The position numbers and the translations under genes are program-made. DNA of 64,000 nt, from contig OZ250169.1 in NCBI GenBank assembly GCA_965237955.1, positions 1,216,001 through 1,280,000 of the forward strand, written 5' to 3'. The notes below the pieces were generated by a model. That model had not been told where the DNA came from, made no database searches, and worked only from the letters and a program-made list of their open reading frames with translations. The DNA is from Candidatus Marinacidobacterales bacterium. GTDB taxonomy: Bacteria > Acidobacteriota > Vicinamibacteria > Marinacidobacterales > SMYC01. This document shows, in pieces, positions 13,990 to 32,011 of the stretch (position 1 is the first letter of the stretch; every line of letters starts with the position of its first letter).

Positions 13990-14255
13990 AGTTGATGGCG
14001 GAAGCACCGCCATTTGACTCTTCGAGTCCATAGAGCGTAGCGATGTTCGGGTGGTTCAGCGAAGCCAGGACCTTTGCTTCTCGCTTGAATCGGGCTAGGC
14101 GTTCTTCGTTCTCAGCGAACTCCTCGGCCAAGACTTTGATCGCCACGTCCCGGCCGAGCTTGGAGTCCTTTGCCCTATAGACCTCTCCCATCCCGCCCTT
14201 ACCGATGGGCTCGAGGATCTCGTAGTGGGCGAGTTTGTGACCAGGTTAGAGTGAC
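13990..14255 (-). pseudogene. Ser/Thr protein kinase N-terminal remnant
   Basis: HYEILEPIGKGGMGEVYRAKDSKLGRDVAIKVL..LARFKREAKVLASLNHPNIATLYGLEE, then truncated; early in-frame stop. Confidence 0.85.
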
Positions 14256-14463
14256 ACGACGTCGACGATGTTACGATGATGGTCGCCGGTCGGCAACTCA
14301 TGAAACCGTCAAGAATCGTCCAAAGCTGCTCGTGAGCTTTTGCAGCCCCGGCAACCCGTGCCGCTGTATGTATTCTTCTTTTTTTCTCCACGTCGACTCC
14401 CGTTGCTTGAAGCTTCCCGGCTGTCTACAATCTCTAGAACTCTTTCGCCGGTCACTAGGGGAG

Positions 14464-15550: not shown

Positions 15551-16332
15551 TCGCCGAGCCACGAATCGTTTTCCCGGCGGAAGCGCGCCTCGCCAACGAT
15601 AGGCTCGTCTACCGCAACCTCGGGCATCATCTCGTGAACGAGCGAGCCTTCGATGGTATGGGTGAGACTCGCCTCCGCGAGCAACGGCGCAAACGACTCG
15701 ATCCGGATCGTGCCCGTCCCATACGAGGCGCCTTTCTCAACACGGAAGTCGGTGACTTCAGCGCTCGTGGGACCGATGCGCAATCGCGCGCTTACCGCAT
15801 CGAGGACAGGAAAGCGCTCGCGTGCGGTCAGACGAGCTCGTCCGGTAGCGAGACTCCCTTCCCAGGACCCATCGTGAGGAACCACGCGAGACTCGATGTC
15901 CTCGAGCTCGAGATCGCCGAAGATCAGGAGTCCGTCGGTGACCGCGACGGCGATGCCGAAGAGCCCGGTGGGCAATCGTAGCGGAGCTCCAGTCTCACTG
16001 TCCCCCGGACGGACGCGAACTTCCGGCGAACGAACCATGAGTGACGTCGTGCTCCAAGGACTGAAACTGAGGACGAGCTCGTCCACTCGAACCGATACAC
16101 CTTCGCCGGCAGAGGACCAGGCGAAGCCGAAGCCGCGAATCTCCCCAAGCCACAGGCGGTAGTCCAGGTGCTCGACACTCGAGCTACCGCCGAGACGATC
16201 ATCCAATGACTTGATGATGAACCGCCGCGCCGCGTCCTTGAACCTGGACGTGTGGACCAACAGGCCGATGAGACAAAGCGCAGCCAGGCAGTAGGCGAAC
16301 GCTTTGAGTAACGATCGACCCTTGGTTTTCAC
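15551..16332 (-). pseudogene. AsmA/TamB-like envelope protein, 3' truncated by IS5
   Basis: N-terminal TM anchor followed by beta-rich repeats; the frame runs into the IS5 right IR. Confidence 0.55.
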
Positions 16333-16406: not shown

Positions 16407-17858
16407 CTACAAATAGGGCGTCAGCAACCGCGCCGCGCCGTCGCGGAGACGGAGCGGAAGGCTCCGGCTTTCGACTTCTTTCCTTTCCAAGCGGCGCGCT
16501 TGGCGGATGCGTTCCATGACGAGCTCTCTCATACGCTTCGCGAGCTCACGGTCGTAGCATTCGACGTTGAACTCGAAGTTGAGCCTGAGGCTTCTCGGAT
16601 CCCAGTTCGTCGAACCGAACAGTACCCAGTAGTCATCCACGACCATCAGCTTGCTGTGATCGAAAGGTGTTTCCGGAGCAAGCCAAACGCGGACGCCGTG
16701 TCCGAGCACTTGCGCGATCTGGCCCCACATGGCCCAGGTGACGAGGTTGAGGTTCCCCTTCTCGGGAATCACGACGTCGACGTCGAGGCCGCTCAACGCG
16801 GCCGTATTGAGGGCGTAGACGAGCGGTTGATCAGGAAGGAAGTAGGGCGTGATGATGCGGATCGACCGTTCCGCGCACGCGATCGCACCCATGAGGGTGA
16901 AGTTCAAGACGTCGAGGTCAGCGTCGGGGCCGTCGAGAATGCCACGAGCGATGGTGTTCCCGGCCGGCTCGAGATCCGGATTCCACTTCGCGCCATCGAG
17001 CGACTCGCCGGTGGTGAACTCCCAATCCTCGGCGAAGGCATCCCGGAGGTGCGCGACAACGGGACCCTCGACGCGGAAGTGGAGATCCATCCCCGGGTGT
17101 TTCGGTCCGTTCGAGAGAACGAAGTCTTGGCGAATGTTCATCCCTCCGGTGAAACCGATGCGTCCATCGACGACCATGACCTTCCGATGGTTGCGCAAGT
17201 TGAACGAGGGCACACGTGTCGAGAACGTCGGCAGGAACGTGGCGACGGGCACGTCGCTCCGCCGGAGAAGCCGCGAGATCGGAGGGCGCGAGTAGCGCGA
17301 GCCCACGTGGTCGATGAGAACCCGTACTTCGACGCCGCGCTCTTTCGCGGCCTTGAGCGCTTCGAGAAACAACTTTCCCGCGGAGTCGTGATCAAAGATG
17401 TAGGTGAGAAGGACGACGGACTTTTCGGCGTTCCCAATCGCCTCTAGCATCGCTGGATATGCTTCGTCCCCGTTGACGAGTGGCTCCACGCAGTTGCCCG
17501 CCAGAAGCGTCCGCGAGGTGACGTTCCCGATGAGATGGGCGAGCTCGACGGCTTCGTCGTCCGCGTCGAGCAAGCTCGCGATGTCACCCGGAATCAGGCT
17601 GTCGCCGGGCCAGCGATCCTCCCTCTCCTCTTCGGCCTCACGCCTGAGGGCGACGGCGCGACGCCGGATGCGGTTGATGCCGATGAAGTAATAGAGGACG
17701 GATCCGATGACCGGCGCCAGAAGGATGAGACCGACCCACGCGATCGCCGCGCGCACTTCGTTCTTGAACAAGAGCGCATGGACGACAGCGACGGTTGCCG
17801 CGACGACGACGAGTGCCGACCCGGCTAGCAACAAATGCGACGCAACCCATTCGATCAT
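16407..17858 (-). CDS. cls: Cardiolipin synthase (phospholipase D family)
   Basis: Two N-terminal TM helices; two HKD motifs (RNHRKVMVVD, HSKLMVVD); GSTNWDPRSLRLNFE. Confidence 0.93.
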   Translation of the reverse strand: MIEWVASHLLLAGSALVVVAATVAVVHALLFKNEVRAAIAWVGLILLAPVIGSVLYYFIGINRIRRRAVALRREAEEEREDRWPGDSLIPGDIASLLDADDEAVELAHLIGNVTSRTLLAGNCVEPLVNGDEAYPAMLEAIGNAEKSVVLLTYIFDHDSAGKLFLEALKAAKERGVEVRVLIDHVGSRYSRPPISRLLRRSDVPVATFLPTFSTRVPSFNLRNHRKVMVVDGRIGFTGGMNIRQDFVLSNGPKHPGMDLHFRVEGPVVAHLRDAFAEDWEFTTGESLDGAKWNPDLEPAGNTIARGILDGPDADLDVLNFTLMGAIACAERSIRIITPYFLPDQPLVYALNTAALSGLDVDVVIPEKGNLNLVTWAMWGQIAQVLGHGVRVWLAPETPFDHSKLMVVDDYWVLFGSTNWDPRSLRLNFEFNVECYDRELAKRMRELVMERIRQARRLERKEVESRSLPLRLRDGAARLLTPYL

Positions 17859-18096: not shown

Positions 18097-18915
18097 ATGA
18101 CGATAAAAACATTGCGGCATTGGATACGAAACTTGGCACCGTGGTGCTTGGCCCTCACGCTCGTCGGTTGCAGCGCGAGCCAGCAAACATCTGTGCCGAC
18201 GCCCCCAGAGCCCCCGACGTCGCCGTCGTCACCGACGGACACGGGGGAATTCGAAGCGACGCCTACCACGCCGTCCCCAGCAGAGGCGCCGTCCGCGGAA
18301 GCACCATCGCTTCCCGAGCCCGCCGGCGAATCAGGAGACGAGACCGACGCCGCAGGCGAAGAGGCCGAGGCCGGCGGTGAAGCGGAAGCTGAGGCCAGCG
18401 CAGAAGCATCTGCCGCGGACGCACCGGCCGGGGGTGCGGAAACTTCGGAAGAGCGACGGGCCGGGCTCGATGGCAAGCTCGATGAATCGCTTCGTGAGTT
18501 CGACGGTCTCATTCTCAAAGAACAAGAAATCCTCGATGAGCGCCGCGAAGAAACCGCTGCGAATGCAGGCGGTGGCGGTGGTCTCGCAAGTGCGGAAGGA
18601 AGCACCGGTGGCGGCGGCAGCACTGAAGACGCCGATGTCGATGTCGATGCCGCATCCCAGGAGCAACGGGGAGGCACGGGTGGATCGCCTGACGCTCCGC
18701 CCGAGGATTCCGCACCGGCCTCACCGGAAGCCACGATCGACGGTGACCCCACGGCAACAGACCTCAATGGTCGGGTTCCCGGGGATGTCGGCGACGGTCG
18801 CGATGACGACATCGTGGCTCGCCAGCTCCGCGAGGCGGCCATGCAGGAAAAGGATCCTGCGCTTCGCGAACGACTGTGGGACGAATACCGCACGTACAAG
18901 AGCGGCACTAAATAG
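18097..18915 (+). CDS. Acidic low-complexity lipoprotein with a helical C-terminal motif (operon gene 1)
   Basis: Lipobox LVGC; long P/E/A/G-rich linker; short helices LDGKLDESLREFDGLILKEQ and DDDIVARQLREAAMQEKDPALRERLWDEYRTYK. Confidence 0.8.
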   Translation: MTIKTLRHWIRNLAPWCLALTLVGCSASQQTSVPTPPEPPTSPSSPTDTGEFEATPTTPSPAEAPSAEAPSLPEPAGESGDETDAAGEEAEAGGEAEAEASAEASAADAPAGGAETSEERRAGLDGKLDESLREFDGLILKEQEILDERREETAANAGGGGGLASAEGSTGGGGSTEDADVDVDAASQEQRGGTGGSPDAPPEDSAPASPEATIDGDPTATDLNGRVPGDVGDGRDDDIVARQLREAAMQEKDPALRERLWDEYRTYKSGTK

Positions 18916-18931
18916 TAATGTGGAGGCAGCC

Positions 18932-20161
18932 ATGACGGCAACGAGTTGGGCTCGAGTGGTGACGGCATCGATTCTCGTCCTCGGACTCATCGCGACCTCC
19001 GCGCTGGCCGAAGACAAACCCGTCGAGCTCGTGCAAGCTCAAACGGAAGTGCCGGAGGAATTGCTGCTCGACGTCGGTATCCAGCTCTTCGACCCCGGGC
19101 TTCCCGACGACGAGTACGAACGCTACCTGCTCGAAGAGAAGGGTGTCTTCGCCGACGTGCGCAAATCCGAAGCGCGCTATTTCCCGCTACGCCTCAAACA
19201 AGCTCTGGAGACTTCGGGGTTTTGGGGCGCGGTTCGCCTCGTGCCATACTCTCACGTCGTCGACGTTCGTATCGGCGGCTTGATCTGGAAGTCCAACGGC
19301 AAGAAGCTGGAAGTCTTCATCAAGGTCGTCGACGCGACCGGCAAAGAGTGGCTCGACAAAGGCTATAAGGCTGAGGCCAACCGGCTGGCCTATTTGGACA
19401 AAGAGACCGACCGCGAGCCGTTCCAAGATCTCTACAACGAGATAGCGAACGATCTTCTCAAGGTGAGCAGAAAACTCGACGAGGAGGTCGTCGTCGAGAT
19501 CCGACGCATTACCGAGCTTCGGTTCGCGGACTACCTGGCGCCGACCGCGTTCGCGGACTACCTTGAGGCCAAGAAAACCAAGTACAAAATTGAACGGTTG
19601 CCTCCGTACGAGGATCCGATGATGCTCCGGCTCGCCGAGATCCGCGAGCGCGACTTCATGTTCGTCGACACCCTCAACGAGTACTACGCGGACTTCGACG
19701 CACAAATGAAAGAGCCCTACGACGGCTGGCGCGAGTTCAGCTATGAGGAGCAGGTCGCTCTCGATGAGCTGAACAAGAAGAAAAAGATGGAGATGATCGC
19801 GGGCATCGCCGCCGTCGTTGGAGGCGTTGTCGCGACCACCAACGGCGGACGCTGGGGTCACGGCGGAGGCCAAGTGGCCATTCTTGGCGGGATGGCAGCC
19901 ATCCAGGACAGCCTCCAGAAGGCCCAGGAAGCCGAGATGCACCGCGAGGGGCTTCGAGAGCTCGCCGCGTCGTTCGATTCCGAGATCACCCCCATCCTCC
20001 TCGATGTCGAGGGGGAGGTGTTGCGCCTCACCGGTTCCGTGGATACACAGTACGCAACATGGCGCCAACTTCTTCGTCACATTTTTGCAGCCGAGACGGG
20101 ACTGCCCTTGGACCCCAACGCCGCGCCGATTCCGGCGACGGAGGGTGAGTCCAAAAACTGA
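18932..20161 (+). CDS. Secreted uncharacterised protein with glycine-zipper hairpin (operon gene 2)
   Basis: GGAGG RBS + ATG at 18932; signal peptide ending ALA; IAGIAAVVGGVVA..GGGQVAILGGMAAI segment between helical stretches. Confidence 0.8.
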   Translation: MTATSWARVVTASILVLGLIATSALAEDKPVELVQAQTEVPEELLLDVGIQLFDPGLPDDEYERYLLEEKGVFADVRKSEARYFPLRLKQALETSGFWGAVRLVPYSHVVDVRIGGLIWKSNGKKLEVFIKVVDATGKEWLDKGYKAEANRLAYLDKETDREPFQDLYNEIANDLLKVSRKLDEEVVVEIRRITELRFADYLAPTAFADYLEAKKTKYKIERLPPYEDPMMLRLAEIRERDFMFVDTLNEYYADFDAQMKEPYDGWREFSYEEQVALDELNKKKKMEMIAGIAAVVGGVVATTNGGRWGHGGGQVAILGGMAAIQDSLQKAQEAEMHREGLRELAASFDSEITPILLDVEGEVLRLTGSVDTQYATWRQLLRHIFAAETGLPLDPNAAPIPATEGESKN

Positions 20162-20180
20162 CTCTCGGTTGGACCCGGCC

Positions 20181-22514
20181 ATGACGGCTCTGGCTCCCGG
20201 TCAGATTCTCGGCGAACGCTTCGAACTCATCCGTCGACTCGGCGAAGGAGGGATGGGCGAAGTGTGGCTCGTGGAAGATTTGGAGCTCTCGGATCGTGTC
20301 GTCGCCAAGATGGTGCCGCAGGTTGCGACCGAGGACCATCTCACTCAGCTGCGACGTGAGTGCCGCCACGCGAGAAAACTCGTCCACTCCAATATCGTCC
20401 CCGTCTACGATTTCCATCGCGCTTCCGGCGTTAGCTTCATCACCATGGCCTACGTCGAAGGTTCCGACATCGGCTCGCTGCGCGGTCGCCCGATCGAAGA
20501 CGTTTTGCCACCGTTGATTGCGGTTGCTGGTGCGCTCGTTTATGCCCACGCACGAGGGATCGTCCACCGCGACCTCAAGGTTGCGAACGTGCTGATGGAC
20601 TACACCGGCGAGCCGCAATTGTTGGACTTCGGGATCTCGGGCCTCGTCGCGCAAGAAAGAAGCGTCGACGGCATCAATATTAAGGGCGGAGGCTCCGAAG
20701 GATCGGCGAGCCCGCAACAGCTCGCCGGGGCTTCACCATCGGTGAGAGACGACATCTACGCTTTCGGCGTGCTCGCCAGCGATCTCCTGAGCGGGCAAAA
20801 ACTCCCGATGAAGCTCGACGCGCTCCTTAATGCCGCAATGAATCGCGAGCCGCGACATCGGCCGCAGACCATGTCCGAAGTCAAGAGCGCGCTCGAGACG
20901 ACCCCGAGTGCACTCGACGCGCCAGCGGCGAAAGAAGTCAAGTTGGCACCGCCACCGCGTGTGAGCCGGGTCGATCCGATCGTGCCCGTCGAAGTAGGGG
21001 CTCGCGAAGCGCCGCCAGTCGATGATGTCCCCTCTGTTCGCTTGGAGCGCGACGTCTCTGGAGGCGGCGTCGGAAGCAAAACCTTTGCCGCGTTCGTCGT
21101 GCTGCTCGCGCTCGCCGCCGGTGTTTTCATCGTCCTACCTCGCTGGGTCCCTCGCTTGGTCGACGATTCGGCCTCGCCGGTTGCAGGTGGACAAAATGAA
21201 CGGGCTGAACAGGCTGAACAGGCGGTTGCACCGCCACCGGCGTTGGAGGAAACCGACGTCGACGACGAAATCAATCTCGAAAACCTCGCGCAAAAGATGA
21301 CCGCGGCGGAGAACGTTCGCGCGCGCGCGGTCGCGTTGCGCGAATCCCTAGATGCGCTAAACGCCGGTGTTTGGGGCGGCGATGCCTATCGAGATGCTCT
21401 AGAAGCTCTCACCCGCGGTGAGGAACAGATGGGACGCCGCGCATTCACGGAGGCCGGGGCCAGTTTTCAAGGAGCACTTTCCGAGCTCGAATCGGTTCGT
21501 GCCAGCTCGACCAGCATCGCCGCCGATGCCATCCGGCGCGGACGAGAGGCGCTCGCCGCGGGAAGCTCGACCGAAGCCGAGGACGCGTTTGCACTAGCCC
21601 TCCAGATCCAGCCCTCGAACCCGGGGGCGAAGCGGGGTCGCGCGCGCGCCAAGGTGCTCGACGAGGTAAGAAATCTCGTGGCACGCGGGGAAGAGCTCGA
21701 ACGTCGAGGCGAGCTCGAGGGCGCTGCCGATAGCTACCGCAAAGCGGTAGCGCTCGATGCGCTCGCTCGAGCCGCGCAGCAAGGTCTCGCTCGTATCGAC
21801 TCGAGAGCGTCGGAGGAGGCCTTCACCCGAGCCATGTCCGAGGCGGTCGCAGCGTTAAACCGGCGTGACTTCGAAGTGGCACGCGCCGGCTTCGAGCGAG
21901 CCCGCGCGATCAAGCCCGACGCACCCGGCGTCGCCGATGGGCTCGAGGCCGTCAAGGAAGGGGAGCGAATCCAAGCTATCGCCCTCCACCGTGAAAAAGC
22001 GATGGCCTTCGAAACGCGAGAAGCATGGCGCTCTGCAGAGCAGCAATATCAAGCCGTGCTCGACATGGACGACACCATCCGATTCGCGCAGGAGGGTAAA
22101 GCGCGGGCTCTCGTCCGAGCCGAGCTGTCAGAGAAGCTCGAGTTTCACATCGGCCGTCCGGAGCGGTTGGCCGAAGACAAAGTTCTCGAGGAGGCATCCA
22201 CGGTCCTGGAAAACGCCAGTGCCGTTTTGAACGCTGGTCCCAAGATTGAGGCGCAGATCGCCCGCCTGACGGATCTGGTCGCCGAGTTCTCGACACCGGT
22301 TCAAGTCCGTCTTCTCTCTGACGGAAAGACCGAAGTCGTCGTCTACAAGATCGGAACGCTCGGCAAGTTCGCTACCCACGCGCTCGTGCTCCGTCCGGGC
22401 ACGTACACGGTGGTGGGACGGCGCCAAGGCTTTCGTGATGTGCGATACCGGCTCGTCGTCCACGCCGACACGCCACCGGAGCCACTAGACGTCCGTTGCC
22501 AGGAGGAGATTTGA
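20181..22514 (+). CDS. Membrane Hanks-type Ser/Thr kinase with periplasmic TPR-like repeats and C-terminal PEGA-like domain (operon gene 3)
   Basis: GEGGMGEV, VAK, HRDLKVANVL, DFG; TM FAAFVVLLALAAGVFIVLP; TPR-like helices (AFALALQIQPSNPGAKRG); LRPGTYTVVGRRQGFRD. Confidence 0.9.
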   Translation: MTALAPGQILGERFELIRRLGEGGMGEVWLVEDLELSDRVVAKMVPQVATEDHLTQLRRECRHARKLVHSNIVPVYDFHRASGVSFITMAYVEGSDIGSLRGRPIEDVLPPLIAVAGALVYAHARGIVHRDLKVANVLMDYTGEPQLLDFGISGLVAQERSVDGINIKGGGSEGSASPQQLAGASPSVRDDIYAFGVLASDLLSGQKLPMKLDALLNAAMNREPRHRPQTMSEVKSALETTPSALDAPAAKEVKLAPPPRVSRVDPIVPVEVGAREAPPVDDVPSVRLERDVSGGGVGSKTFAAFVVLLALAAGVFIVLPRWVPRLVDDSASPVAGGQNERAEQAEQAVAPPPALEETDVDDEINLENLAQKMTAAENVRARAVALRESLDALNAGVWGGDAYRDALEALTRGEEQMGRRAFTEAGASFQGALSELESVRASSTSIAADAIRRGREALAAGSSTEAEDAFALALQIQPSNPGAKRGRARAKVLDEVRNLVARGEELERRGELEGAADSYRKAVALDALARAAQQGLARIDSRASEEAFTRAMSEAVAALNRRDFEVARAGFERARAIKPDAPGVADGLEAVKEGERIQAIALHREKAMAFETREAWRSAEQQYQAVLDMDDTIRFAQEGKARALVRAELSEKLEFHIGRPERLAEDKVLEEASTVLENASAVLNAGPKIEAQIARLTDLVAEFSTPVQVRLLSDGKTEVVVYKIGTLGKFATHALVLRPGTYTVVGRRQGFRDVRYRLVVHADTPPEPLDVRCQEEI

Positions 22515-24955
22515 CCTCTCCGAAGGGACGTTTCTACATTCGTGAAGCCGATGGCACCCGTCGTCGCGTAGAGACGAGCGCGTTCCCGCTCGCCGTCGGT
22601 GGCACGAATGCTGATATTGCCATCGCCGTTTCCGGTCCGAACGTGGAGCCCCTCGCCCACCTCGCTCTCTCGGACGGCGAAGTATTCCTGCAACCCAACA
22701 TGTCCAACAGGGGGCGCGTTCTTTGTAACGGCGAGCCCGTGGCATCGTCGCAGTGGCTCCGCCACGGCGACGTTTTGTCGATCGGAGGGACCCGCATCGA
22801 AATCGAAGCGCGCGACGGCGGCTTTCGCTTTTGTATCGCGACAGCGGCGGAGAAAACGACCGACCCACCGATTTTGGAGGTCGCGTCAAAAACGCCCCCG
22901 GAACCGCCGAAGGGGGAAACCGTGGAGCCAATCGCGTTCACGCCGAGCTCGCTCGACGACGCGAGACGTCCACGGCGACGGTTGAAAGTTGGGGCGCTGA
23001 TGTTCTGGGGGGCGCTTGTCTTCCTGGGCGCTCTTGCATGGGCTCTATTCAACGCGCGTGGGGTGATGATCGAGATCGATCCGATGCCGGAGAGTGTCGT
23101 CGTAGACGGAAATGCGCTCGTCGTTGAGCTCGGCGGGCGTTTTTGGATGCACCCCGGCGCGTTCACCGTCGTCGCGGAAAAAGAAGGCTACCGGCGGCTC
23201 GAAGCACCCATCGAGGTCGGTGAGCCACGTAGCCAAACGTATGAGTTCTCGATGCAACGGCTTCCGGGGCGGCTCGCCATCACCACCATCCCGAACGAAG
23301 GAGCCGTGATCACGATCGACGGCGCCGAGCTCGGCACTTCCCCACTGCAGCCGGTGCAGCTCGAGCCCGGCGAGCATCAGGTGCTCGTCCGTGCATCCGG
23401 CTATCGCGACTTCCAGACCGAAGTCATGATCGAGGGCGAGGGCACCATCGTGAACCTCGAAGCGTCGCTCGAGCCACGATGGGCGCCGATCACGTTTCAA
23501 TCGAATCCGCCGGGTGCCATGATCCGGGTCGCGGGCAAGCCCCACGGTCCGACGCCGGTCACCGCAAACGTCATCGAAGGCACTCACGACTACGTCGTCG
23601 TTTTGGATGGGTACAAGCCCTACCGCGGCAGCGTGCACGTCGCCGCCGGCCAACCGCAAACGCTGAGCCCGGTGGCGTTGTCGCTCGTCGAAGGCACCAT
23701 CGCCCTTCTCAGTGTTCCCGCGACGGCGAACGTGACCCTCGATGGCGACTATCTTGGGCAGACACCCCTCGATGTCCATCTGACCCCGGGCGAAACGTAT
23801 CAGCTCGAGTTGTCGCGCGCCGGCTATGATCCCGTCACCCAAGAGATTTCGGTGGCGTCCTCGGCGAAGAAGACGATGACGGTTCGCCTCGAGCCTAGAC
23901 TCGGAGAGGTCGCACTCGTCGTCGATCCACCCGATGCCGAGCTCTACATCGACGGCGAGCACCGCGGCGCGGCCAAGCAAGTGTTGAACCTTCCAGCCAC
24001 CTCCCACCGCATCGAGATCAAGAAAGACAAGTACGAGAGCTTCGCCACCGATATCACCCCTCGACCCGGTTTTCCGCAAACGCTCGAAGTCAATCTCAAG
24101 ACCACCGCCGAGATCAAAGCCGCATCGATTCTCCCCGTGATCCAGACGTCCAAAGGACACGAGCTCAGACTCATAACCCCCAAACGCTTCGAGATGGGTG
24201 CATCGCGACGAGAGCCGGGAAGACGGGCGAACGAGTCGCTTCGCACCGTCGAGCTCACGCGCTCGTTCTACCTAGCGACCCGGGAAATCACCAACCGGCA
24301 GTTTCGCGAGTTCAGAAGCGGCCACCGCTCCGGCGCCGTCTCCGGGCACAACCTCGAAGTCGACCATCACCCGGTGGTACGTATCACCTGGCAGGACGCG
24401 GCCGCCTATTGCAATTGGTTGAGCCAACAAGAGTCGCTCCCACCCGCTTACGTCAACGCCGGCGGGAAGCTAATAGGCGCGAATCCGCCGAGAACCGGCT
24501 ATCGGCTTCCCACCGAAGCAGAATGGGCGCAGGCCGCGAGGTATGCTGGGGACACGAAGCTCAAATACCCTTGGGGGAGTGCGCTTCCGGTGGCGCCGGG
24601 CTCCGGCAACTACGCCGATGAGTCCGCGAAAGGTCTGGTGACGGCGACGGTGCCGAATTACAACGACAAGTTCCCGGTCACCGCTCCCGTGGACAGCTTC
24701 TCCGCCAACGAGCTCGGCATGTTCAACCTCGGCGGCAACGTCGCCGAGTGGGTGCACGACCTCTACACGATTTATCCGTCGGGCGCGCGTAAAGTGATGC
24801 AGGATCCCATGGGTCCAACCGAAGGAGAGTTTCATACCATTCGGGGTGCGAGCTGGATGCACGGAAGCGTGACCCAGCTCAGGCTCAGCTTCCGTGACTA
24901 CGGGAACAAACCGCGACCCGACGTCGGATTCAGGATCGCGAGATATTTGGAGTAA
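22511..24955 (+). CDS. FHA-like + TM + multiple PEGA + FGE/SUMF1-fold protein (operon gene 4)
   Basis: GAGGAG RBS, TTG overlapping the kinase stop; CNGEPV..LRHGDVLSIGG; PEGA repeats (SNPPGA.I...G.TP); GYRLPTEAEW, GGNVAEW, RGASW, GFR. Confidence 0.9.
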   Translation: MTSPKGRFYIREADGTRRRVETSAFPLAVGGTNADIAIAVSGPNVEPLAHLALSDGEVFLQPNMSNRGRVLCNGEPVASSQWLRHGDVLSIGGTRIEIEARDGGFRFCIATAAEKTTDPPILEVASKTPPEPPKGETVEPIAFTPSSLDDARRPRRRLKVGALMFWGALVFLGALAWALFNARGVMIEIDPMPESVVVDGNALVVELGGRFWMHPGAFTVVAEKEGYRRLEAPIEVGEPRSQTYEFSMQRLPGRLAITTIPNEGAVITIDGAELGTSPLQPVQLEPGEHQVLVRASGYRDFQTEVMIEGEGTIVNLEASLEPRWAPITFQSNPPGAMIRVAGKPHGPTPVTANVIEGTHDYVVVLDGYKPYRGSVHVAAGQPQTLSPVALSLVEGTIALLSVPATANVTLDGDYLGQTPLDVHLTPGETYQLELSRAGYDPVTQEISVASSAKKTMTVRLEPRLGEVALVVDPPDAELYIDGEHRGAAKQVLNLPATSHRIEIKKDKYESFATDITPRPGFPQTLEVNLKTTAEIKAASILPVIQTSKGHELRLITPKRFEMGASRREPGRRANESLRTVELTRSFYLATREITNRQFREFRSGHRSGAVSGHNLEVDHHPVVRITWQDAAAYCNWLSQQESLPPAYVNAGGKLIGANPPRTGYRLPTEAEWAQAARYAGDTKLKYPWGSALPVAPGSGNYADESAKGLVTATVPNYNDKFPVTAPVDSFSANELGMFNLGGNVAEWVHDLYTIYPSGARKVMQDPMGPTEGEFHTIRGASWMHGSVTQLRLSFRDYGNKPRPDVGFRIARYLE

Positions 24956-24958
24956 ACG

Positions 24959-25147
24959 ATGAAATGGATGATTTATTCACTCGCTGTGACACTTCTCGCT
25001 AGTGGCTCCCTGGTGGCGAGCTCGACCGCACCAAAAACCTACGAGAGCTCACAAACAGAACCCGAGCCAGATCCCGAGGAAGACGACTTCCTCCCCACTG
25101 AGAAAGTCCCAGCCGATAGCGCCATCTCGTTTCCAGTGGATATTTGA
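24959..25147 (+). CDS. Small secreted acidic protein (operon gene 5)
   Basis: GGAG RBS; signal peptide; fills the gap exactly between genes 4 and 6; ends DFLPTEKVPADSAISFPVDI. Confidence 0.75.
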   Translation: MKWMIYSLAVTLLASGSLVASSTAPKTYESSQTEPEPDPEEDDFLPTEKVPADSAISFPVDI

Positions 25148-25945
25148 ATGAAGAAATCGTACCCGGTCGAGTTCGTTTATCAAGCGCTATCTCTCATCGT
25201 CGCGATTATCGTCGTCCACGCCATCTACGTGCTCGTGGTGCGTCCGAAGGCCGACGTCGTTTTCGGCGAGCAGCAAGCGATGATGGAGATCGACCCGAAC
25301 TACGTTCAAGAGCGTTCGGTGTGGGTCATCATCCGTGATTTCGAACAAGAGACGTGCATCGTGCTCATGCTCTGGGCCATGGCGATCATGGTCTACAAAG
25401 GTGTGCTCGTGGCGCGTGAGCATCGCCTCCTCGAGATGGATCTCGTACCGGTGGACGAGGGAACGAAAATTCTCCCGGAGGACGCGCGCGAGTACGCGCG
25501 CCAGATGCAATCCCTGCCGGACTACGAGCAGCGGCTTTTGTTGCCGCGTTCGCTTCTCTCGGCGCTTCACCGCTTCCGCGCGACGCGCAACATTCAAGAC
25601 GTGTCGAACACCGCACACGGCGTGTGTGAAGCCGAATCCGAGCGACTCGAATCAGAGCTTTCGATGGTGCGCTACATCGCATGGGCGATCCCATCGATCG
25701 GGTTCATCGGCACCGTGCGCGGCATCGGTGAAGCGCTCGGCCAGGCGCACAGGGCCGTCGAGGGCGACATCGCCGGCGTGACCCAAAGCTTGGGGGTCGC
25801 GTTCAACTCGACGTTCATCGCGCTCTTGATCAGCATCGTGCTCATGTTCCTGCTCCATCAGCTCCAGTTGCAGCAAGAGCGGTTGGTCCTCGATACCGAA
25901 ACCTACCTCGACCATCATTTGATCCAACACCTCCAGGTTCCCTAG
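25148..25945 (+). CDS. MotA/TolQ/ExbB proton channel family protein (operon gene 6)
   Basis: IAWAIPSIGFIGTVRGIG..LGVAFNSTFIALLISI signature; 4 hydrophobic helices. Confidence 0.92.
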   Translation: MKKSYPVEFVYQALSLIVAIIVVHAIYVLVVRPKADVVFGEQQAMMEIDPNYVQERSVWVIIRDFEQETCIVLMLWAMAIMVYKGVLVAREHRLLEMDLVPVDEGTKILPEDAREYARQMQSLPDYEQRLLLPRSLLSALHRFRATRNIQDVSNTAHGVCEAESERLESELSMVRYIAWAIPSIGFIGTVRGIGEALGQAHRAVEGDIAGVTQSLGVAFNSTFIALLISIVLMFLLHQLQLQQERLVLDTETYLDHHLIQHLQVP

Positions 25946-25955
25946 GCGCCTCGAG

Positions 25956-27365
25956 ATGACCGTAGTCGCATTGGAGCTCAACGACGCGGGCATCTCTGCC
26001 GTCTCGGATGGAGCTCCCGATAGTCTCGCCATTCCCGAGAGCCCGGGATACGCGCTCGTTGAAGACGGGAGTGTCGTCACCGGAGTCGATGCCCGTGCTC
26101 GAGCACGGCTCAAGCCACGATTCACCCACACGCGATTCTGGGATGCTCTCGACACGACGCCCTTGTCGCGACCGTTTCCGAACAAGCTGAGTCGAGCCGA
26201 CCTCGCGCACGCCCATCTGAAGCACGTTTGGAAGAGTCTTCAGGATGACGGTGGGGTGGACGAAGCCGTGCTCGCCGTCCCCGGCTGGTACGGATTGGAG
26301 CAGCTGGGCCTCATCCTCGGCATGGCGCGGGCGTGCGACATCTCCGTCAACGGCATGATCGACTCGGCGCTGGCGGCCGCGGCCGGAGTGTCGGGACCGA
26401 GCGCAGCGTCCCCCGTGCACGCCGTCCATCTCGATCTCCATCTCCACCGGTGCTCCGCCGCGAGGATCGTGAGAGAAGATCGCCTCGTTCGCGAAAACAC
26501 CGTCGTCGACGACGACGTTGGTCTGATCCCGCTCTACGATGCTTGGGCCACGCTAGTGGCACAGTCTTTCGTTCGCCAGACGCGCTACGACCCGCTGCAC
26601 TCGGCCGAGAGCGAACAGAAGCTCTACGATCTGCTCCCGGGCTGGCTCGAGACACTGATCGACGACGACGAGGCAACGCTCTCGCTGACGCCAGCCGGAA
26701 AAGAGCTCGCGATCGAGCTCGACCGACGCCAGCTCGTTCACAGCGCAGGCTCGTATTACGAGTCGATCGCGGCGCTCGCAACCTCGGTGATGCCTGCCGA
26801 TGAGCCGGTGATGCTCCTCGTTTCCCATCGTCTCGGCCGACTCCCGGGTCTCGTCGAGAAGCTCTCCCGCGACGTTTCCGACAACCTCGTCCTCCTGCCG
26901 CCCGAAGCGGCAGCCGCGGGCGCGCTCGCCTACGACAGCCACGTCCCGAGCGCTCCGGAGAACGAGGGTTCTCTGACGTTTCTCACCAGCCTCCATCTCG
27001 GCGAAGGCGGCAAACCGCTCGCCGCCGATCCAAGCTTTCACGCAACCAGCGATGATGTGCGCTCGCCCACCCACCTGCTCCACGACGCTTCCGCGTACCC
27101 GCTCGATCCTGAGCCGTTCCTCCTCGGAGTATCCATCCCGGAAGGCAAACGCGGATTGAATCTCGCGGGTGACACCGCCGGGATTTCGCGCTATCACTGC
27201 AGCATCTACCGCATGAACGGACGCATCGTCGTCGAGGATCACAGCAAGTTCGGCTCGTTCGTGAACGGGACACGCGTTCACGAGCGTGCCGCGCTCGCAA
27301 TAGGCGACCGACTACGACTCGGCACGCCCGGTGTCGAAGTGCAGCTCATCGAGGTAGCGGACTGA
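25956..27365 (+). CDS. Degenerate Hsp70/actin-like fold protein with C-terminal FHA domain (operon gene 7)
   Basis: EAVLAVPGWY..MIDSALAAA and PPEAAAAGALAY resemble the Hsp70 nucleotide-binding domain; FHA ISRYHC..EDHSKFGSFVNG..GDRLRLG. Confidence 0.75.
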   Translation: MTVVALELNDAGISAVSDGAPDSLAIPESPGYALVEDGSVVTGVDARARARLKPRFTHTRFWDALDTTPLSRPFPNKLSRADLAHAHLKHVWKSLQDDGGVDEAVLAVPGWYGLEQLGLILGMARACDISVNGMIDSALAAAAGVSGPSAASPVHAVHLDLHLHRCSAARIVREDRLVRENTVVDDDVGLIPLYDAWATLVAQSFVRQTRYDPLHSAESEQKLYDLLPGWLETLIDDDEATLSLTPAGKELAIELDRRQLVHSAGSYYESIAALATSVMPADEPVMLLVSHRLGRLPGLVEKLSRDVSDNLVLLPPEAAAAGALAYDSHVPSAPENEGSLTFLTSLHLGEGGKPLAADPSFHATSDDVRSPTHLLHDASAYPLDPEPFLLGVSIPEGKRGLNLAGDTAGISRYHCSIYRMNGRIVVEDHSKFGSFVNGTRVHERAALAIGDRLRLGTPGVEVQLIEVAD

Positions 27366-28456
27366 TGGCGCGGCGACGCATCAACATATTCACGCTCTCT
27401 TTTCTGGACGCGATGATGTGCGGCTTCGGCGCGGTCGTGTTGTTCTTCATGATCATCAACGCGAGCTTCGGAAAAGTGTCGCGCGGGATGACCGGGAAAC
27501 TGCAGGGTGAGGTCACCCGGCTGGAGCAAGAAGTCCTCGAAGGCTACGTCCAGCTCGTCGAGCTCCGGAACTCCTTCGAGGAGATCGACCAGGAAAACGT
27601 CATTGCCGCAGGGTTATCGAGGCGGCTCATCGAGACTCTCACCGTAGTCCAGGAAGAGCTCGCAACCTACGAGAATTCGACGCTCGCAACGCGCGAGCAC
27701 ATTAACAAGCTCAAGACCGATCTGAAGACGCTTGAAGACGGGGTGAAACGGCTGTCGGCTGCGGGCCCGAGTGAGGAGACGCCTGGTGACCGTATCCGCA
27801 CGTTCGTTGGAGACGGCGATCGACAATACCTCACGGGGTTGAAGGTCGGAGGCCGCCGCATCCTCATTCTCGTCGACGTGTCCGCGAGCATGCTCGACGA
27901 GACCATCGTCAACGTCGTGCGCCGCCGCAACCAGTCGGTTGCGATCAAGAGGCGGTCCGAAAAATGGCAGCAGGCGGTCTCCACCGTGGATTGGATCACG
28001 ACCCAGATTCCGACTGACAGTCGGTTTCAAATCTACACGTTCAATACGAGCTCGGCGTCGGTCGTGCCCGGAAAGAACCACGAGTGGCTCGACGCAGGCG
28101 ATCGCGAAGTCCTCGACGAGGCCGTCCAACGCCTCCGCGGCGTCATCCCTAGTGACGGCACCAACCTTTACCGGGCGTTCACGTCGTTCCGCTCGTTGCG
28201 CCCGGCTCCCGACAATATCTACTTGCTCGTCGACGGTCTCCCCACACAAGGCCAACGACCACCGAGACGCGCCACGATCTCCGGAAAAGACCGCGCCAAG
28301 CTATTCAACGACGCCGTCAAAGAGCTACGGGACAACATTTCCATCAACGTGATCTTGTTCCCCATGGAAGGCGACCCCATGGCCGCAAGCGCTTTCTGGA
28401 AGTTGGCCCTGTTCTCGGGTGGCGCCTACATAAGCCCATCGGAGGACTGGCCTTGA
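27365..28456 (+). CDS. TM-anchored coiled-coil + vWA protein with ExbD/TolR-like N-terminus (operon gene 8)
   Basis: RRR..FTLSFLDAMMCGFGAVVLFFMII; MIDAS DVSAS, GTN, VDGLP. Confidence 0.88.
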   Translation: MARRRINIFTLSFLDAMMCGFGAVVLFFMIINASFGKVSRGMTGKLQGEVTRLEQEVLEGYVQLVELRNSFEEIDQENVIAAGLSRRLIETLTVVQEELATYENSTLATREHINKLKTDLKTLEDGVKRLSAAGPSEETPGDRIRTFVGDGDRQYLTGLKVGGRRILILVDVSASMLDETIVNVVRRRNQSVAIKRRSEKWQQAVSTVDWITTQIPTDSRFQIYTFNTSSASVVPGKNHEWLDAGDREVLDEAVQRLRGVIPSDGTNLYRAFTSFRSLRPAPDNIYLLVDGLPTQGQRPPRRATISGKDRAKLFNDAVKELRDNISINVILFPMEGDPMAASAFWKLALFSGGAYISPSEDWP

Positions 28457-29469
28457 GAAAGAGAAGAAGAAGACGCCGCGATTTCGATGCGTTCAACCTG
28501 TCGTTTCTCGACGTAGTCTGCTGCGGCTTCGGCGCGATCATTCTGCTCCTCGTTCTCACCAAGATCGGTGAGCCCCGCGCTCTCGAGAACATCAAGAGCG
28601 AGCTCGAAGGGCTCGTCGACAAGTTACAAGAAGAGCTCTTCGAGATCCGAGGCGAGACCAACGTTTTCGAGCGGGACCTGAAAACGAGAGTCGAGCAGCT
28701 ATCGACCGAGCGCGACGCCATAGCGCGCCTCCGCGGGGATCTCTCCAAGATTCAGGGCGTATTCGCCGCGACCCAACAACTCTCCGAAGTCAACGACATC
28801 GTCGAAGGACGGCTTCTCGCCGCCCAGCAGGACCTGACCGAGGAGATGAAGAGGTTGCTCGGCCGAAGCTACCGCCGACGTGAGAGCGACTCCACCGTCG
28901 GCGGCATCCCCGTCGACAGCGAGTACATCATCTTCATCATCGATACGTCCGGCAGCATGCGCAACTACGCGTGGCACCTGGTCGTCAAGAAAATGCAAGA
29001 GGTCCTCAACATCTACCCCAAAGTCAAAGGCATCCAGGTCATGAACGACATGGGGCAATACATGTTCGGGAACTATTCGGGGCGGTGGATCCCGGATACC
29101 CCGGGCCGGCGGAAGGTCATCCTCAATCGGCTGCGGAGCTGGGCGCCGTTCAGCAACTCGAGCCCGGTGGAAGGTATCATCCGGGCGATCCGAAGCTTCG
29201 CAGCTCCGGACAAGAAAATTAGCCTCTACGTCTTCGGCGACGATTTCAACGGCGATTCCATCGATCGAGTCGTGGAAACGGTGGATCGCATCAACAAGAG
29301 AGACAAGGACGGCAACCGCCTGGTCCGCATTCACGGCATCGGTTTTCCGGTGTTGTTCTCTCGGATCGGGTTTCAAGAGAACGGGGGTGTACGGTTTGCA
29401 ACGCTGATGCGTTTACTGTGTCGTGAGAACGGTGGCGCTTTTGTGGGATTGGGATCGTTGCGGCGGTGA
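28453..29469 (+). CDS. Second TM-anchored coiled-coil + vWA protein (operon gene 9)
   Basis: RRRR..FNLSFLDVVCCGFGAIILLLVL; MIDAS DTSGS, FGDD; TTGA overlap with gene 8. Confidence 0.88.
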   Translation: MRKRRRRRRDFDAFNLSFLDVVCCGFGAIILLLVLTKIGEPRALENIKSELEGLVDKLQEELFEIRGETNVFERDLKTRVEQLSTERDAIARLRGDLSKIQGVFAATQQLSEVNDIVEGRLLAAQQDLTEEMKRLLGRSYRRRESDSTVGGIPVDSEYIIFIIDTSGSMRNYAWHLVVKKMQEVLNIYPKVKGIQVMNDMGQYMFGNYSGRWIPDTPGRRKVILNRLRSWAPFSNSSPVEGIIRAIRSFAAPDKKISLYVFGDDFNGDSIDRVVETVDRINKRDKDGNRLVRIHGIGFPVLFSRIGFQENGGVRFATLMRLLCRENGGAFVGLGSLRR

Positions 29470-29470
29470 G

Positions 29471-29679
29471 CAGCATTCAGCATTCAGCATCCAGCATTCA
29501 GTACAGCTCGCGAACTTTGCCTTCGGACACTTTGCCCCAAACGCGGAGGAGCATCGCCTTCGGGCAGCGTTCGCTCTGGTTACCTGCGGCACGGTGCTGA
29601 TGGGTACGACGTCATTTACCGGCACGATGCTGGTCTGAACCGGACGCTGGATGCTGAATGCTGGATGCTGAGTGCTGAT
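29471..29679. repeat. Heptamer (CAGCAT[T/C]) tandem arrays in inverted orientation
   Basis: CAGCATTCAGCATTCAGCATCCAGCATTCAG at about 29471-29501 and CTGGATGCTGAATGCTGGATGCTGAGTGCTG at about 29647-29677. Confidence 0.8.
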
Positions 29680-32011
29680 CCTCAGTCGGATGAACATGCA
29701 GGTCTCGTTGCGGGAATGGGATACTTATTCCCGCGTCTTTGAGCTCGTCGTTGATGGTGACGTGCAGGTCGCTCGAGACTTGTAAGAAGTCGTCGATCCG
29801 GGTCCATACCAGCAGCCGGAAGTCGAGGGCGCTTTCCCCGAAGCCGACCATCAGCGCCGAAGGCGCGGGACTCTCGAGTGTTTTCGGATGCGCGCTCGCG
29901 GTGTCGCGGAGTATTTCCAATACTTTCTTCGGGTCGGTGCCGAGGGCGACGTGAACGAGAACTTCGACCCGGCGCGTCATGTCCGTGCGCGTCCAGTTGA
30001 CGAACTCTTTGGACACGAGGTCGCTGTTCGGTACGACGACCTCGGCGCCATCGAACGTCCGGATGGTGCTAGCGCGGATACCGATGCCGGTCACGATTCC
30101 GAAATGATCTTTCGTTTCGACGCGATCGCCGACTTTGATCGGTCTTTCGAAGATCAGAATCAGTCCAGAGACGAAGTTGCTGACGATGTTCTGGAGGCCG
30201 AAGCCAATGCCGACCCCCAACGCGCCAAAAACAACGGTTAGTTGCGTCGCGCTGAGCCCACCGGCGGCAGCCGCCAGTAACAGTCCCGAGCCCCAGATCA
30301 CGTAGTTGATGACGGAGACCACAGAGTGGTCCGCTACAGCGGGCAGACGAAGGCGGGGCAACATTTCCTCGCGCAGGACGAAGCGCACCATCCGCGCCGT
30401 GAACCATGTCGCCACCAGGATGACCATCGCCGCAACGACGCGACCTACCGACACGTCGAGCCCCCCCACGGTCGCAGACGCGGATAGCGCTGCCGCTGCT
30501 TTCTCGGTCAAAGGTTCGAGAAGCTGGAAATTTCTGAGCGAAGCTCGACTCCACCAAATGAACGCGACGGTCGCGGCGACGAGGAATACCCCGCGCGCGA
30601 ACATGTCGCCGTGCCGGCGAACGCTCGGGAAGATGGCGCCGAGCGGGCTCCGGACGGCGACGGGAACGAGAGCCGTCAACGCGAGGACGACAGTTGCCCA
30701 TGCGATGGCGCCAAAGGCGGCCGTCGTCGTCGCATCGGTCAAAGTCTCCGACAGATTTTCCCAACCTAGGATGTTCGCGATCAAGGAAACGGTCAGGAGC
30801 ACGGCCGCCATGGCGAGCAAGAACCAAGCGAAGCGCCACCAAACGCCCACCTTGGTCTTCTCATCCGGCCGCCACCGCGAGATCAGAGCCGCCACCGCTC
30901 CGAGCGCCAACGCGGTCACCAAAACCAGGAGAATCCTGCGAAGAAACGAACCGTCCGGGGCCAGCGCCCACAGACGATTGAGGACGAGCAGCACCATGGC
31001 ACCATAGAGCGCGGATCGCGCCGGTACCGGCAGGAGCCCTCGTCCGAGTCGCACGATGGGCACGATGGCAAGAACCAACACCATGTCCTCGACCGGACCA
31101 ACGGTGTTATCGAGCAGGAACACCATCGCGACGACGGTGAAGGCGACCGCCGTCGACAACGGCCGGGAGACAACGAACCGGGCACTATCCAAACGGTGGT
31201 CGTCGGGGGGCCATGAACGGCTAACGTATCGCGCGAGGAGAGCCGCGAACAAGAACGCGACGAAAGATGTCAAGAGAAACGTGAACCTCCCCGGGCGGGA
31301 CAGGATGAAGGCGACGAGAGTGTCGAGCCAATACTTCTGAGCCTCGACGGCGGAGGCGCGGATCGTGCTGCCTTCCGAAGACTCGCCCAATCGCCACAGG
31401 GGTGGCGTGTTCCGAGTCCAGACACGTGCTCGAACTTTGGCGGCGATGGCCGAGAGTCGATCGATCGCTTCCGCGGAAATCTCTCTGCCTTGTGACACCC
31501 GGGCGAGCACGGAACCGATGGCCTCACCACGTTCGGTGAGACGTCTGTCGACGCCATCCAATCGCTCCAACAGCCGGTCGATCTGCTCGACAATCTCGGT
31601 AGGGGCGTTCTCCTCGGTTGCGTTCTCGCGAGTGATTTCCCACTCGTCGCGAGCCGCCGAAAGCTCTTCGCCTTCCTGAGCGAGCGTCTGCCAACGCTCC
31701 TGAAGCTCGACCATCCACTGGGCCAGCTTTTCGTCGAACTCGCCCCAACCCAGGCGATGATCCGCGAGCATCCGCATCGAGATCTCGTCGCCCTTCACGG
31801 CGTCGAGGTTCCGACGAAGCTCCACGAGAACATCACCGGCATCGCCGACGGCAGCCTCGATTGCTTGTATCTCGTAGCTCGGCTCGAGCAAGGCTTCGAC
31901 CCGACGCAAATTCGCGCCGAGCTCGTCGGAGCGGACCGCCACATCCGCCAGCGGGATCGCAACCGGCACTTCGGCCGTTACCGCCGGCACCGACGCCTCG
32001 TCCTGTGCCAT
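29612..32011 (-). CDS. Large MscS-family (MscK-like) mechanosensitive channel
   Basis: Periplasmic coiled coil, many TMs, GALGVGIGFGLQNIVSNFVSGLILIFERPIKVGD, VVPNS, IPFPQRDLH; signal peptide appears out of frame. Confidence 0.9.
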   Translation of the reverse strand: MAQDEASVPAVTAEVPVAIPLADVAVRSDELGANLRRVEALLEPSYEIQAIEAAVGDAGDVLVELRRNLDAVKGDEISMRMLADHRLGWGEFDEKLAQWMVELQERWQTLAQEGEELSAARDEWEITRENATEENAPTEIVEQIDRLLERLDGVDRRLTERGEAIGSVLARVSQGREISAEAIDRLSAIAAKVRARVWTRNTPPLWRLGESSEGSTIRASAVEAQKYWLDTLVAFILSRPGRFTFLLTSFVAFLFAALLARYVSRSWPPDDHRLDSARFVVSRPLSTAVAFTVVAMVFLLDNTVGPVEDMVLVLAIVPIVRLGRGLLPVPARSALYGAMVLLVLNRLWALAPDGSFLRRILLVLVTALALGAVAALISRWRPDEKTKVGVWWRFAWFLLAMAAVLLTVSLIANILGWENLSETLTDATTTAAFGAIAWATVVLALTALVPVAVRSPLGAIFPSVRRHGDMFARGVFLVAATVAFIWWSRASLRNFQLLEPLTEKAAAALSASATVGGLDVSVGRVVAAMVILVATWFTARMVRFVLREEMLPRLRLPAVADHSVVSVINYVIWGSGLLLAAAAGGLSATQLTVVFGALGVGIGFGLQNIVSNFVSGLILIFERPIKVGDRVETKDHFGIVTGIGIRASTIRTFDGAEVVVPNSDLVSKEFVNWTRTDMTRRVEVLVHVALGTDPKKVLEILRDTASAHPKTLESPAPSALMVGFGESALDFRLLVWTRIDDFLQVSSDLHVTINDELKDAGISIPFPQRDLHVHPTEDQHSASSIQHPASGSDQHRAGK

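Follow-up and report, generated by a model that had tools for sequence, protein, structure and literature searches.

What do nine tightly packed genes arranged around a MotA/TolQ/ExbB-type channel build together, and has such an assembly been described before? The question is raised by an operon at positions 18097-29469 of a 64,000-nucleotide stretch of the genome of a Candidatus Marinacidobacterales bacterium (contig OZ250169.1, positions 1,216,001 to 1,280,000), which we call the window. In the reading that we favour, at a probability of about 0.5, its nine genes (g1-g9) build one ion-driven, envelope-spanning machine that pulls or twists an outer-membrane complex, mainly for envelope upkeep. 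The genes are as follows, with TM standing for transmembrane and MIDAS for metal-ion-dependent adhesion site.

18097..18915, plus strand: g1, 272 amino acids, predicted lipoprotein (LVGC; lipidation predicted from the sequence).
18932..20161, plus strand: g2, 409 amino acids, exported, with an N-domain of TolB-N/FlgT/PelC/CsgG fold and then a long helical hairpin.
20181..22514, plus strand: g3, 777 amino acids, with a cytoplasmic Hanks Ser/Thr kinase, one TM helix (301-319), a periplasmic TPR/helical region and a conserved C-terminal domain.
22511..24955, plus strand: g4, 814 amino acids (819 from 22496), with a degenerate FHA-like domain, one TM helix, four PEGA repeats and an FGE-fold domain.
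24959..25147, plus strand: g5, 62 amino acids, with a signal-like N-terminus, an acidic linker and a near-invariant C-terminal tail.
25148..25945, plus strand: g6, 265 amino acids, a channel of the MotA/TolQ/ExbB family (PF01618, E value 2e-14).
25956..27365, plus strand: g7, 469 amino acids, with a cytoplasmic Hsp70/actin-fold domain and a C-terminal non-canonical FHA domain.
27365..28456, plus strand: g8, 363 amino acids, with a TM helix bearing Asp15, a long helical stalk and a vWA head (MIDAS D171-S173-S175, T266, D290).
28453..29469, plus strand: g9, 338 amino acids, with TM Asp20, a stalk and a vWA head (MIDAS D164-S166-S168, S236, D263).

The nine open reading frames (ORFs) are co-directional, contain zero internal stops and fill 18097-29469, with intergenic gaps from g1 to g9 of 16, 19, −4, 3, 0, 10, −1 and −4 bases (g4 starting at TTG 22511; the g3/g4 gap is −19 if the start is 22496). 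This packing agrees with the initial annotation of this DNA, and the small ninth gene, g5, has its stop abutting the g6 start. Pfam domains comprise Pkinase and TPR in g3, four PEGA repeats and FGE in g4, MotA_ExbB in g6, FHA in g7 and a weak VWA match in g8 (E value 1e-5) and g9 (7e-4). The surrounding window is rich in insertion sequences (ISs), with IS21, IS5-like, IS630-like, ISAzo13, ISL3 and mutator-type transposases, and 15 of its 64 one-kilobase tiles are repeated elsewhere in the genome, none of them between 16 and 38 kb; the operon itself carries no IS. That intactness amid ISs had been taken as a sign of selection, an argument we dropped because an IS-free stretch of 11.4 kb is expected by chance with a probability of 0.65, given the 308 repeat sites spread over 8.13 Mb of this genome. 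The conclusion itself holds on other evidence: purifying selection acts on all nine genes, since the ratio of nonsynonymous to synonymous substitution rates (dN/dS) was 0.056-0.43, below 0.45 everywhere, for every gene in 5/5 locus pairs, with the lowest values against the nearest relative in g6, g8 and g9 (0.06-0.08). A scan for sigma-70 promoters gave chance-level results (3 observed vs 2.2 expected), and the same scan found no terminator after g9.

The motor core consists of g6, g8 and g9. In g6, T189 and T222 align with TolQ T145 and T178 (alignment to 8odt_A) and are invariant in 93/93 rows, and the protein carries an N-terminal hydrophobic segment and a conserved loop that are extra to the TolQ/ExbB/MotA channels. 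Both g8 and its paralog g9 (about 24% identity) start with basic residues followed by the TM helix, and about 140-150 residues of stalk separate the TM Asp from the MIDAS. In g8, D15 was invariant in 82 rows chosen without an Asp-bearing search pattern, unlike the 80 named loci introduced below, whose selection pattern includes the Asp; in g9, D20 was kept in 100/101 rows and the Asp and Ser residues of DxSxS in 98/101, the remaining three being gaps or X. The annotated combination of a MotA/ExbB channel with two vWA partners is upheld, and each partner bears a TM Asp and a full MIDAS. No exbD, tolR or motB was found beside g6, in a scan for ExbD and TonB that covered part of the window's ORFs, and none of the four ExbD matches in the genome falls within the window, three of them adjoining two other MotA/ExbB genes. 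An SHLS-type TM helix occurred in 0/68 g3 and 0/73 g4 proteins (SxxxH in g4 TM helices, 0/73), and we therefore rejected both as SHLS-type TolA/TonB transducers. The proposal that the two vWA proteins have taken over the ExbD/MotB role is supported.

A three-gene core of this kind already has a predicted counterpart. Williams-Jones et al. (Mol Biol Evol 2025; PMC12204202, section 8, Fig. 4c-d) computationally predicted a motor of unknown function from Proteobacteria and Verrucomicrobia, in which a TolQ-like pentamer is combined with a heterologous TPH-vWA pair whose Asp faces Thr. Shared with it, as far as the accessible part of that paper describes it, are a tolQ-like gene without exbD/tolR, two different TM-vWA proteins with a conserved Asp, a channel Thr ring and the lack of SHLS. 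On each feature tested, the operon agrees with the predicted TPH-vWA class; the assignment is by architecture and not by kinship with the paper's Idiomarina query, and no Idiomarina was present among the best 80 of at least 597 loci. The accessible text of PMC12204202 has no mention of PEGA, FGE or kinase and says nothing of g1-g5, g7, an optional kinase or MIDAS; the accessible supplement text contains neither PEGA nor SUMF1, and the gene-cluster figure may draw neighbours. Against the TolQRA, ExbBD-TonB and MotAB 5:2 motors, the operon shares the channel family, the two pore threonines and an Asp-bearing partner helix, but its partner is a heterodimer in which a stalk and vWA head replace the ExbD or OmpA-like domain, and an SHLS transducer is missing; lacking an ExbD/TolR partner and an SHLS-bearing TonB/TolA, it does not belong to Ton or Tol-Pal. 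The earlier claim that no characterised system has this composition thus stands in that no known system fits, and needs amending in that the motor core was already predicted in 2025 (PMC12204202); the full nine-gene apparatus was not found in the literature searched, which did not extend to subscription papers.

We then determined how widely the nine genes occur together. A genome scan with the 82-row alignment returned at least 605 stretches, of which at least 597 were confirmed; the best 80 were kept as named loci and, together with 20 from close relatives, make up 100 mapped loci. By phylum, the best 80 of at least 597 fall into Pseudomonadota (71), Thermodesulfobacteriota (6), Myxococcota (2) and Acidobacteriota (1); one g8 cluster carries Opitutae names, and 852 clusters were obtained at 50% identity with E values up to 1e-10. 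Among the 63 long loci, whose sequence reaches 9.3 kb or more upstream of g8, all nine genes were present in 57 (54 by profile plus 3 after a search for the g5 tail), and the order was the same in 57/58 loci complete by profile, the exception being L023, with g1-g4 inverted. The other six long loci comprise two without g7 (L013, L067), one without g6 (L093) and three that are divided or truncated (L022, L049, L100), and 5/5 checked incomplete cases retain g2 somewhere in the genome. Synteny across phyla, which the initial annotation had set as a test of its proposal, was thus observed, and a single multi-gene system conserved around an ion-channel motor is supported. At L093:8222-8611, g5 runs straight into g7 and the MotA-like g6 is absent, where deletion, relocation or an assembly error is possible; genome G012 holds two operon copies (L001, L013), one complete and one without the kinase domain and g7. 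Within the host order, g8 was detected in 24/26 genomes of two families and 0/14 of a third, and across the host phylum in 3/300 sampled genomes (E 1e-20). This patchy distribution speaks against a general essential envelope function. The operon is also found in genome bins of 1.9-2.6 Mb, and cultured carriers among the matches listed are Pseudohalioglobus sediminis and Biformimicrobium ophioploci. Loci L026, L075 and L077 are labelled Klebsiella pneumoniae or Enterobacteriaceae, labels that are doubtful because L026 and L075 group with Pseudomonadales and Pseudohongiellaceae in the tree.

Beside the channel, g7 is likely a pseudo-ATPase or adaptor. Its N-terminal 345 residues have the Hsp70 nucleotide-binding fold (profile match to Ssz1, E 3.5e-6), and the AlphaFold2 (AF2) model (predicted local distance difference test score, pLDDT, 94.7) matched the Hsp70 ATPase fold in VIA-align with Z 32.1 and a root-mean-square deviation (rmsd) of 3.4 over 340 aligned residues. 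Canonical Hsp70 motifs, located here partly through the Ssz1 alignment, include the phosphate-loop glycines and a catalytic Glu. Across 88 g7 rows the ATP motifs are replaced by ELND, D-A/S-A, D-L-H/Q-L-H and S-x-R, with the glycine loops and catalytic Glu gone, which is why an adaptor is favoured and an active Hsp70 or filament former was rejected. The FHA domain stands where the Hsp70 substrate-binding domain would follow. Canonical phosphothreonine-binding FHA domains carry G-R, S-x-x-H and N-G motifs, and in loci with a kinase the g7 FHA keeps Ser in 31/34, Arg in 29/34 and His in 31/34.

The g3 kinase offers a possible input to this domain. Its kinase residues are intact (K43, E60, HRDLKxxN, DFG), and the APE motif reads SPQ (residues 177-180, window 20709-20720), a family signature seen in 31/34 homologs. 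Counting the 66 loci that hold g2, the g3 C-terminus and g9 (the other 34 of the 100, mostly at contig ends, being set aside), the kinase domain was present in 34, 30 of them with all five checked catalytic residues and 4 degenerate, and absent in 32; the kinase domain of g3 is thus optional and its periplasmic part is core, and by inference roughly half of the hosts run the machine without a kinase. Ser and His of the g7 FHA were kept in 30/30 intact-kinase loci, 1/4 degenerate-kinase loci (a frameshifted assembly) and 3/32 kinase-less loci, and on a 63-row tree, from which L014 and L015 (frameshifted) and L091 and L093 (short) were left out, there were five changes in kinase state and four in the FHA motif. 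The linkage between kinase and FHA is suggestive, not significant. The switch, if real, would run via g7, since the g4 FHA-like domain has no phosphothreonine-binding motif (its role as a phospho-reader was rejected for this reason) and the g7 FHA keeps Ser, Arg and His. Of the kinase/FHA switch annotated as the machine's own, the two components are present, with the kinase absent or degenerate in the proportions above and both FHA domains non-canonical.

Catalytic FGE proteins (SUMF1) have an active-site Cys pair near the C-terminus. In g4, no conserved Cys was found in the C-terminal catalytic region of 83 rows, the only conserved Cys column being kept in 75/83, and a function as sulfatase maturase was rejected on the absence of the catalytic cysteines. 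The g4 score against GldK was 107 bits, at a cut-off of 350.

The remaining exported proteins have less recognisable sequences. The g1 body is long, acidic and of Pro/Gly-rich low complexity, with a conserved middle helix and a conserved C-terminal helical motif that occurs in 64/66 loci; it matched no Pfam or NCBIfam family, and its dN/dS was 0.15-0.31. The g5 protein is predicted to be an exported peptide, whose tail reads FPVDI in 57/86 ORFs and an FPxDI-like variant in the remainder (dN/dS 0.14-0.43); at sites where the operon is split it remains next to g6-g9, and L093 retains it in the absence of g6. By sequence, g2 had no useful match in Pfam, NCBIfam or PDB, and the ESM Atlas returned only unnamed clusters that carry DUF2884 as an automatic label and share no Pfam family. 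Its AF2 model (pLDDT 82.5), in which the Gly-rich, hydrophobic hairpin tip has low confidence, gave VIA-align scores of Z 10.7 with an LPHT-ring chain (rmsd 5.3, 173 aligned), 10.2 with TolB (2.6, 101), 9.9 with PelC (2.4, 108) and 9.2 with the curli complex (3.6, 119). The first 160 residues match the flagellar LPHT-ring chain, TolB-N, CT253, PelC, the CsgG complex, PqiC and TraT (Z 10.7-6.8). Most of these fold neighbours are envelope lipoproteins and several form rings; PelC, CsgG, FlgT, PqiC and TraT are ring-forming, in part according to their entry titles. A lipobox-like site was found in 36/68 g2 homolog ORFs with a loose pattern. We therefore put forward g2 as a candidate outer-membrane ring, a hypothesis and no more because several of its fold neighbours form rings but TolB-N does not. 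A lone g2 paralog (38% identity, 396 amino acids) lies at G000:C1:3948417-3949604 in the host genome amid transposases, with no other operon gene adjoining, and genome G343 likewise carries a further, longer ORF that resembles g2.

Several known systems share parts of this inventory. The Agl-Glt machinery of Myxococcus, in the portions of PMC11761067 and PMC9946355 available, comprises a heterodimeric plug, the FHA-TM-periplasmic protein GltG, TPR proteins, a vWA adhesin and an actin-fold partner, all with likenesses in the operon, which differs in having its vWA on the plug and not on a surface lipoprotein, in lacking TonB_C and outer-membrane barrels, and in PEGA/FGE, g2 and g5, for which those portions show no counterpart. 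By Pfam and NCBIfam, the nine genes include no domain of the TolR-like AglQ/AglS, of the TonB_C proteins GltG/J or of an outer-membrane barrel (Glt genes were sought within the operon only), so the operon is not placed in Agl-Glt. The Pseudomonas H1-type VI secretion system (T6SS) sensor TagQ/TagR/PpkA/Fha1, as partly covered in PMC13713981, combines a lipoprotein, a non-catalytic FGE protein, a membrane Ser/Thr kinase and an FHA reader, a set that the operon shares; the operon differs in lacking a phosphatase and TagST, in the fusion of FGE to a TM-PEGA stalk, in its optional kinase and in its non-canonical FHA. The T6SS sheath protein VipB was not found in the host genome (98% complete; E. 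coli control positive), and was present in 1/5 other carriers, distant from the operon; a T6SS accessory cluster was accordingly rejected. The annotated absence of exbD/tolR, tonB and T6SS core genes from the window is thus borne out for the ExbD matches and for VipB, within the partial ORF scan given above. Bat operons share domains of the kinds found here. In MoxR-vWA ternary systems, vWA, FGE, PEGA, kinase, FHA and Hsp70-like domains occur, and the part of PMC7159879 available makes no mention of ExbB or TolQ; compared with these and with Bat, the operon is conserved, not diversifying, and it has no MoxR AAA+ ATPase among its nine genes (neighbour clusters being annotated only in part), which excludes membership. 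The predicted non-match to Agl-Glt, T6SS accessory genes and MoxR-vWA is hence upheld, and the proposed merging of T6SS and type IX secretion modules is not: the T6SS parallel is one of shared domains and not of shared system ancestry, with no sheath gene found in this genome, and the type IX parallel is probably of the same kind.

Neighbouring genes favour an envelope role weakly. A cardiolipin-synthase-like gene at 16407-17858 on the minus strand, divergent from g1, is kept in 12/20 host-order loci. Gammaproteobacterial loci carry, upstream, a TPR protein with a weak TonB_C match in 26/80 loci, downstream, two lipoprotein-like ORFs without a Pfam family in 40 and 28 of 80, and also an M48 peptidase in 20/80; examples of these neighbours lie at L061:3-1118, L022:12091-12840, L095:7416-8144 and L062:13419-14825. 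Inspection of the sequence starts of the 25 largest neighbour clusters, with six Pfam scans, revealed no recurrent substrate, synthase, TonB-dependent receptor or beta-barrel. A large MscS-family gene at 29612-32011 (minus strand) is convergent on g9. Further upstream, in the region 14170-16332, a 316-amino-acid ORF at 15382-16332 (minus strand) without a Pfam match ends inside an IS5-like element with ~100 genome copies and is probably an interrupted gene; no homologs of it were found in the mapped loci.

Assembled from these parts, the favoured machine would work as follows. By analogy with the TolQRA/ExbBD family and with the accessible part of PMC12204202, five g6 subunits would encircle the g8 and g9 helices (5:1:1), and ion flow would turn the g6 ring against the g8/g9 axle. 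The vWA heads on their stalk may then be the force-bearing tool, so that a separate TonB/TolA would be unneeded, and their MIDAS sites could clamp an acidic residue of a partner within the system, for which the g5 FPxDI tail and the g1 acidic C-terminal motif are the leading candidates. The g2 protein would form an outer-membrane ring or docking site with g1 as its tether, g3 and g4 would be single-pass struts holding the motor, with the non-catalytic FGE of g4 as a binding module, and g7 would sit on the channel as a cytoplasmic, ATP-independent adaptor through whose FHA, in about half of loci, the g3 kinase might gate the motor. The likeliest job would be Tol-Pal-like outer-membrane upkeep or remodelling, and next gated transport through g2. 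A more daring version, which would make this a separate class of trans-envelope machine and in which a rotary ion motor with a pair of integrin-like MIDAS heads on its axle grips the dedicated, exported FPxDI peptide and winds or pulls cargo through the g2 ring under a kinase-switched, Hsp70-derived pseudo-ATPase clutch, we hold to be doubtful.

Other explanations were weighed against the same data. The motor might gate or power transport through a g2 channel, whether export of a polymer, an adhesin or g5, or TonB-independent uptake; the kinship of the g2 fold with PelC, CsgG and PqiC, its Gly-rich hydrophobic hairpin tip and a patchy distribution suited to an accessory role all speak for this, yet the neighbour clusters offer no recurrent substrate, synthase, receptor or barrel and the g5 sequence is fixed, unlike diversifying cargo, and we consider the idea unlikely. 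A surface motility or adhesion machine, with vWA heads that are or drive adhesins, seems improbable: the Agl-Glt likenesses in heterodimeric plug, GltG-type FHA protein, TPR proteins and vWA adhesin (PMC11761067 and PMC9946355, in part) and the actin-family fold of g7 are countered by stalks that tether g8 and g9 to the inner membrane with the surface not plainly reachable, by nine genes without TonB_C or an outer-membrane barrel, by a g7 devoid of the ATP motifs that a filament requires and by the occurrence of the operon in the small genome bins. We give just as little credence to an envelope-damage or contact sensor in which the channel is the output (defence, depolarisation) and not a motor; it would account for the lipoprotein, FGE, membrane kinase and FHA set of the H1-T6SS sensor (PMC13713981, in part) and for FHA residues that track kinase integrity, but the kinase is missing or broken in 36/66 loci that keep the structural genes, VipB is missing from the host genome and 4/5 other carriers, and strong conservation with a fixed order is unlike defence islands. 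That the operon joins two separate modules, g1-g4 for scaffold and signalling and g5-g9 as the motor, is very improbable, even though three loci are interrupted at the g4/g5 boundary, L023 by the inversion of one half, L100 by an insert of 2.6 kb and L049 by having g2 on a different contig: 5/5 checked genomes with incomplete loci still hold g2, 57/63 long loci keep all nine genes, and kinase (g3) and FHA (g7) co-vary across the break.

The envelope-upkeep machine has to contend with a number of observations that weigh against it. Its proposed function rests on anatomy and neighbours, and the extra lipoprotein and TPR neighbours were sought in the host genome and not found. Host g2 has no lipobox, its fold is shared by TolB-N and LptE-like proteins, which are monomeric, scores below Z 11 are tied, and its hairpin, searched as part of whole g2, had no clear structural match. 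As to the switch, in the g7 FHA Arg is not among the five commonest residues after Gly and Asn is replaced by Tyr/Phe in 31/33, the three kinase-less loci that retain Ser/His are same-family relatives of the host, 3.5/5 independent pairs agree with 0 opposite (p 0.125) on only five contrasts, and no phosphatase is present in the operon. Finally, g7 is missing in 3/66 loci and g6 in one (L093), and presence is patchy (3/300 phylum genomes, 0/14 in one family).

5:2 ion motors are known in only a handful of roles: flagella, Ton, Tol, gliding and Zorya. The operon, which is common, provides the whole parts list for another, predicted 5:2-type motor, whose axle would itself exert the force, and it offers a direct test of rotation vs pulling in this motor family as well as a case of phosphorylation control gained or lost between lineages. 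Its carriers belong to ecologically important, poorly studied groups, cultured members among them, and if the MIDAS-headed axle does wind cargo, hundreds of species from the sea, sediments and soils would possess a TonB-independent secretion or uptake route.

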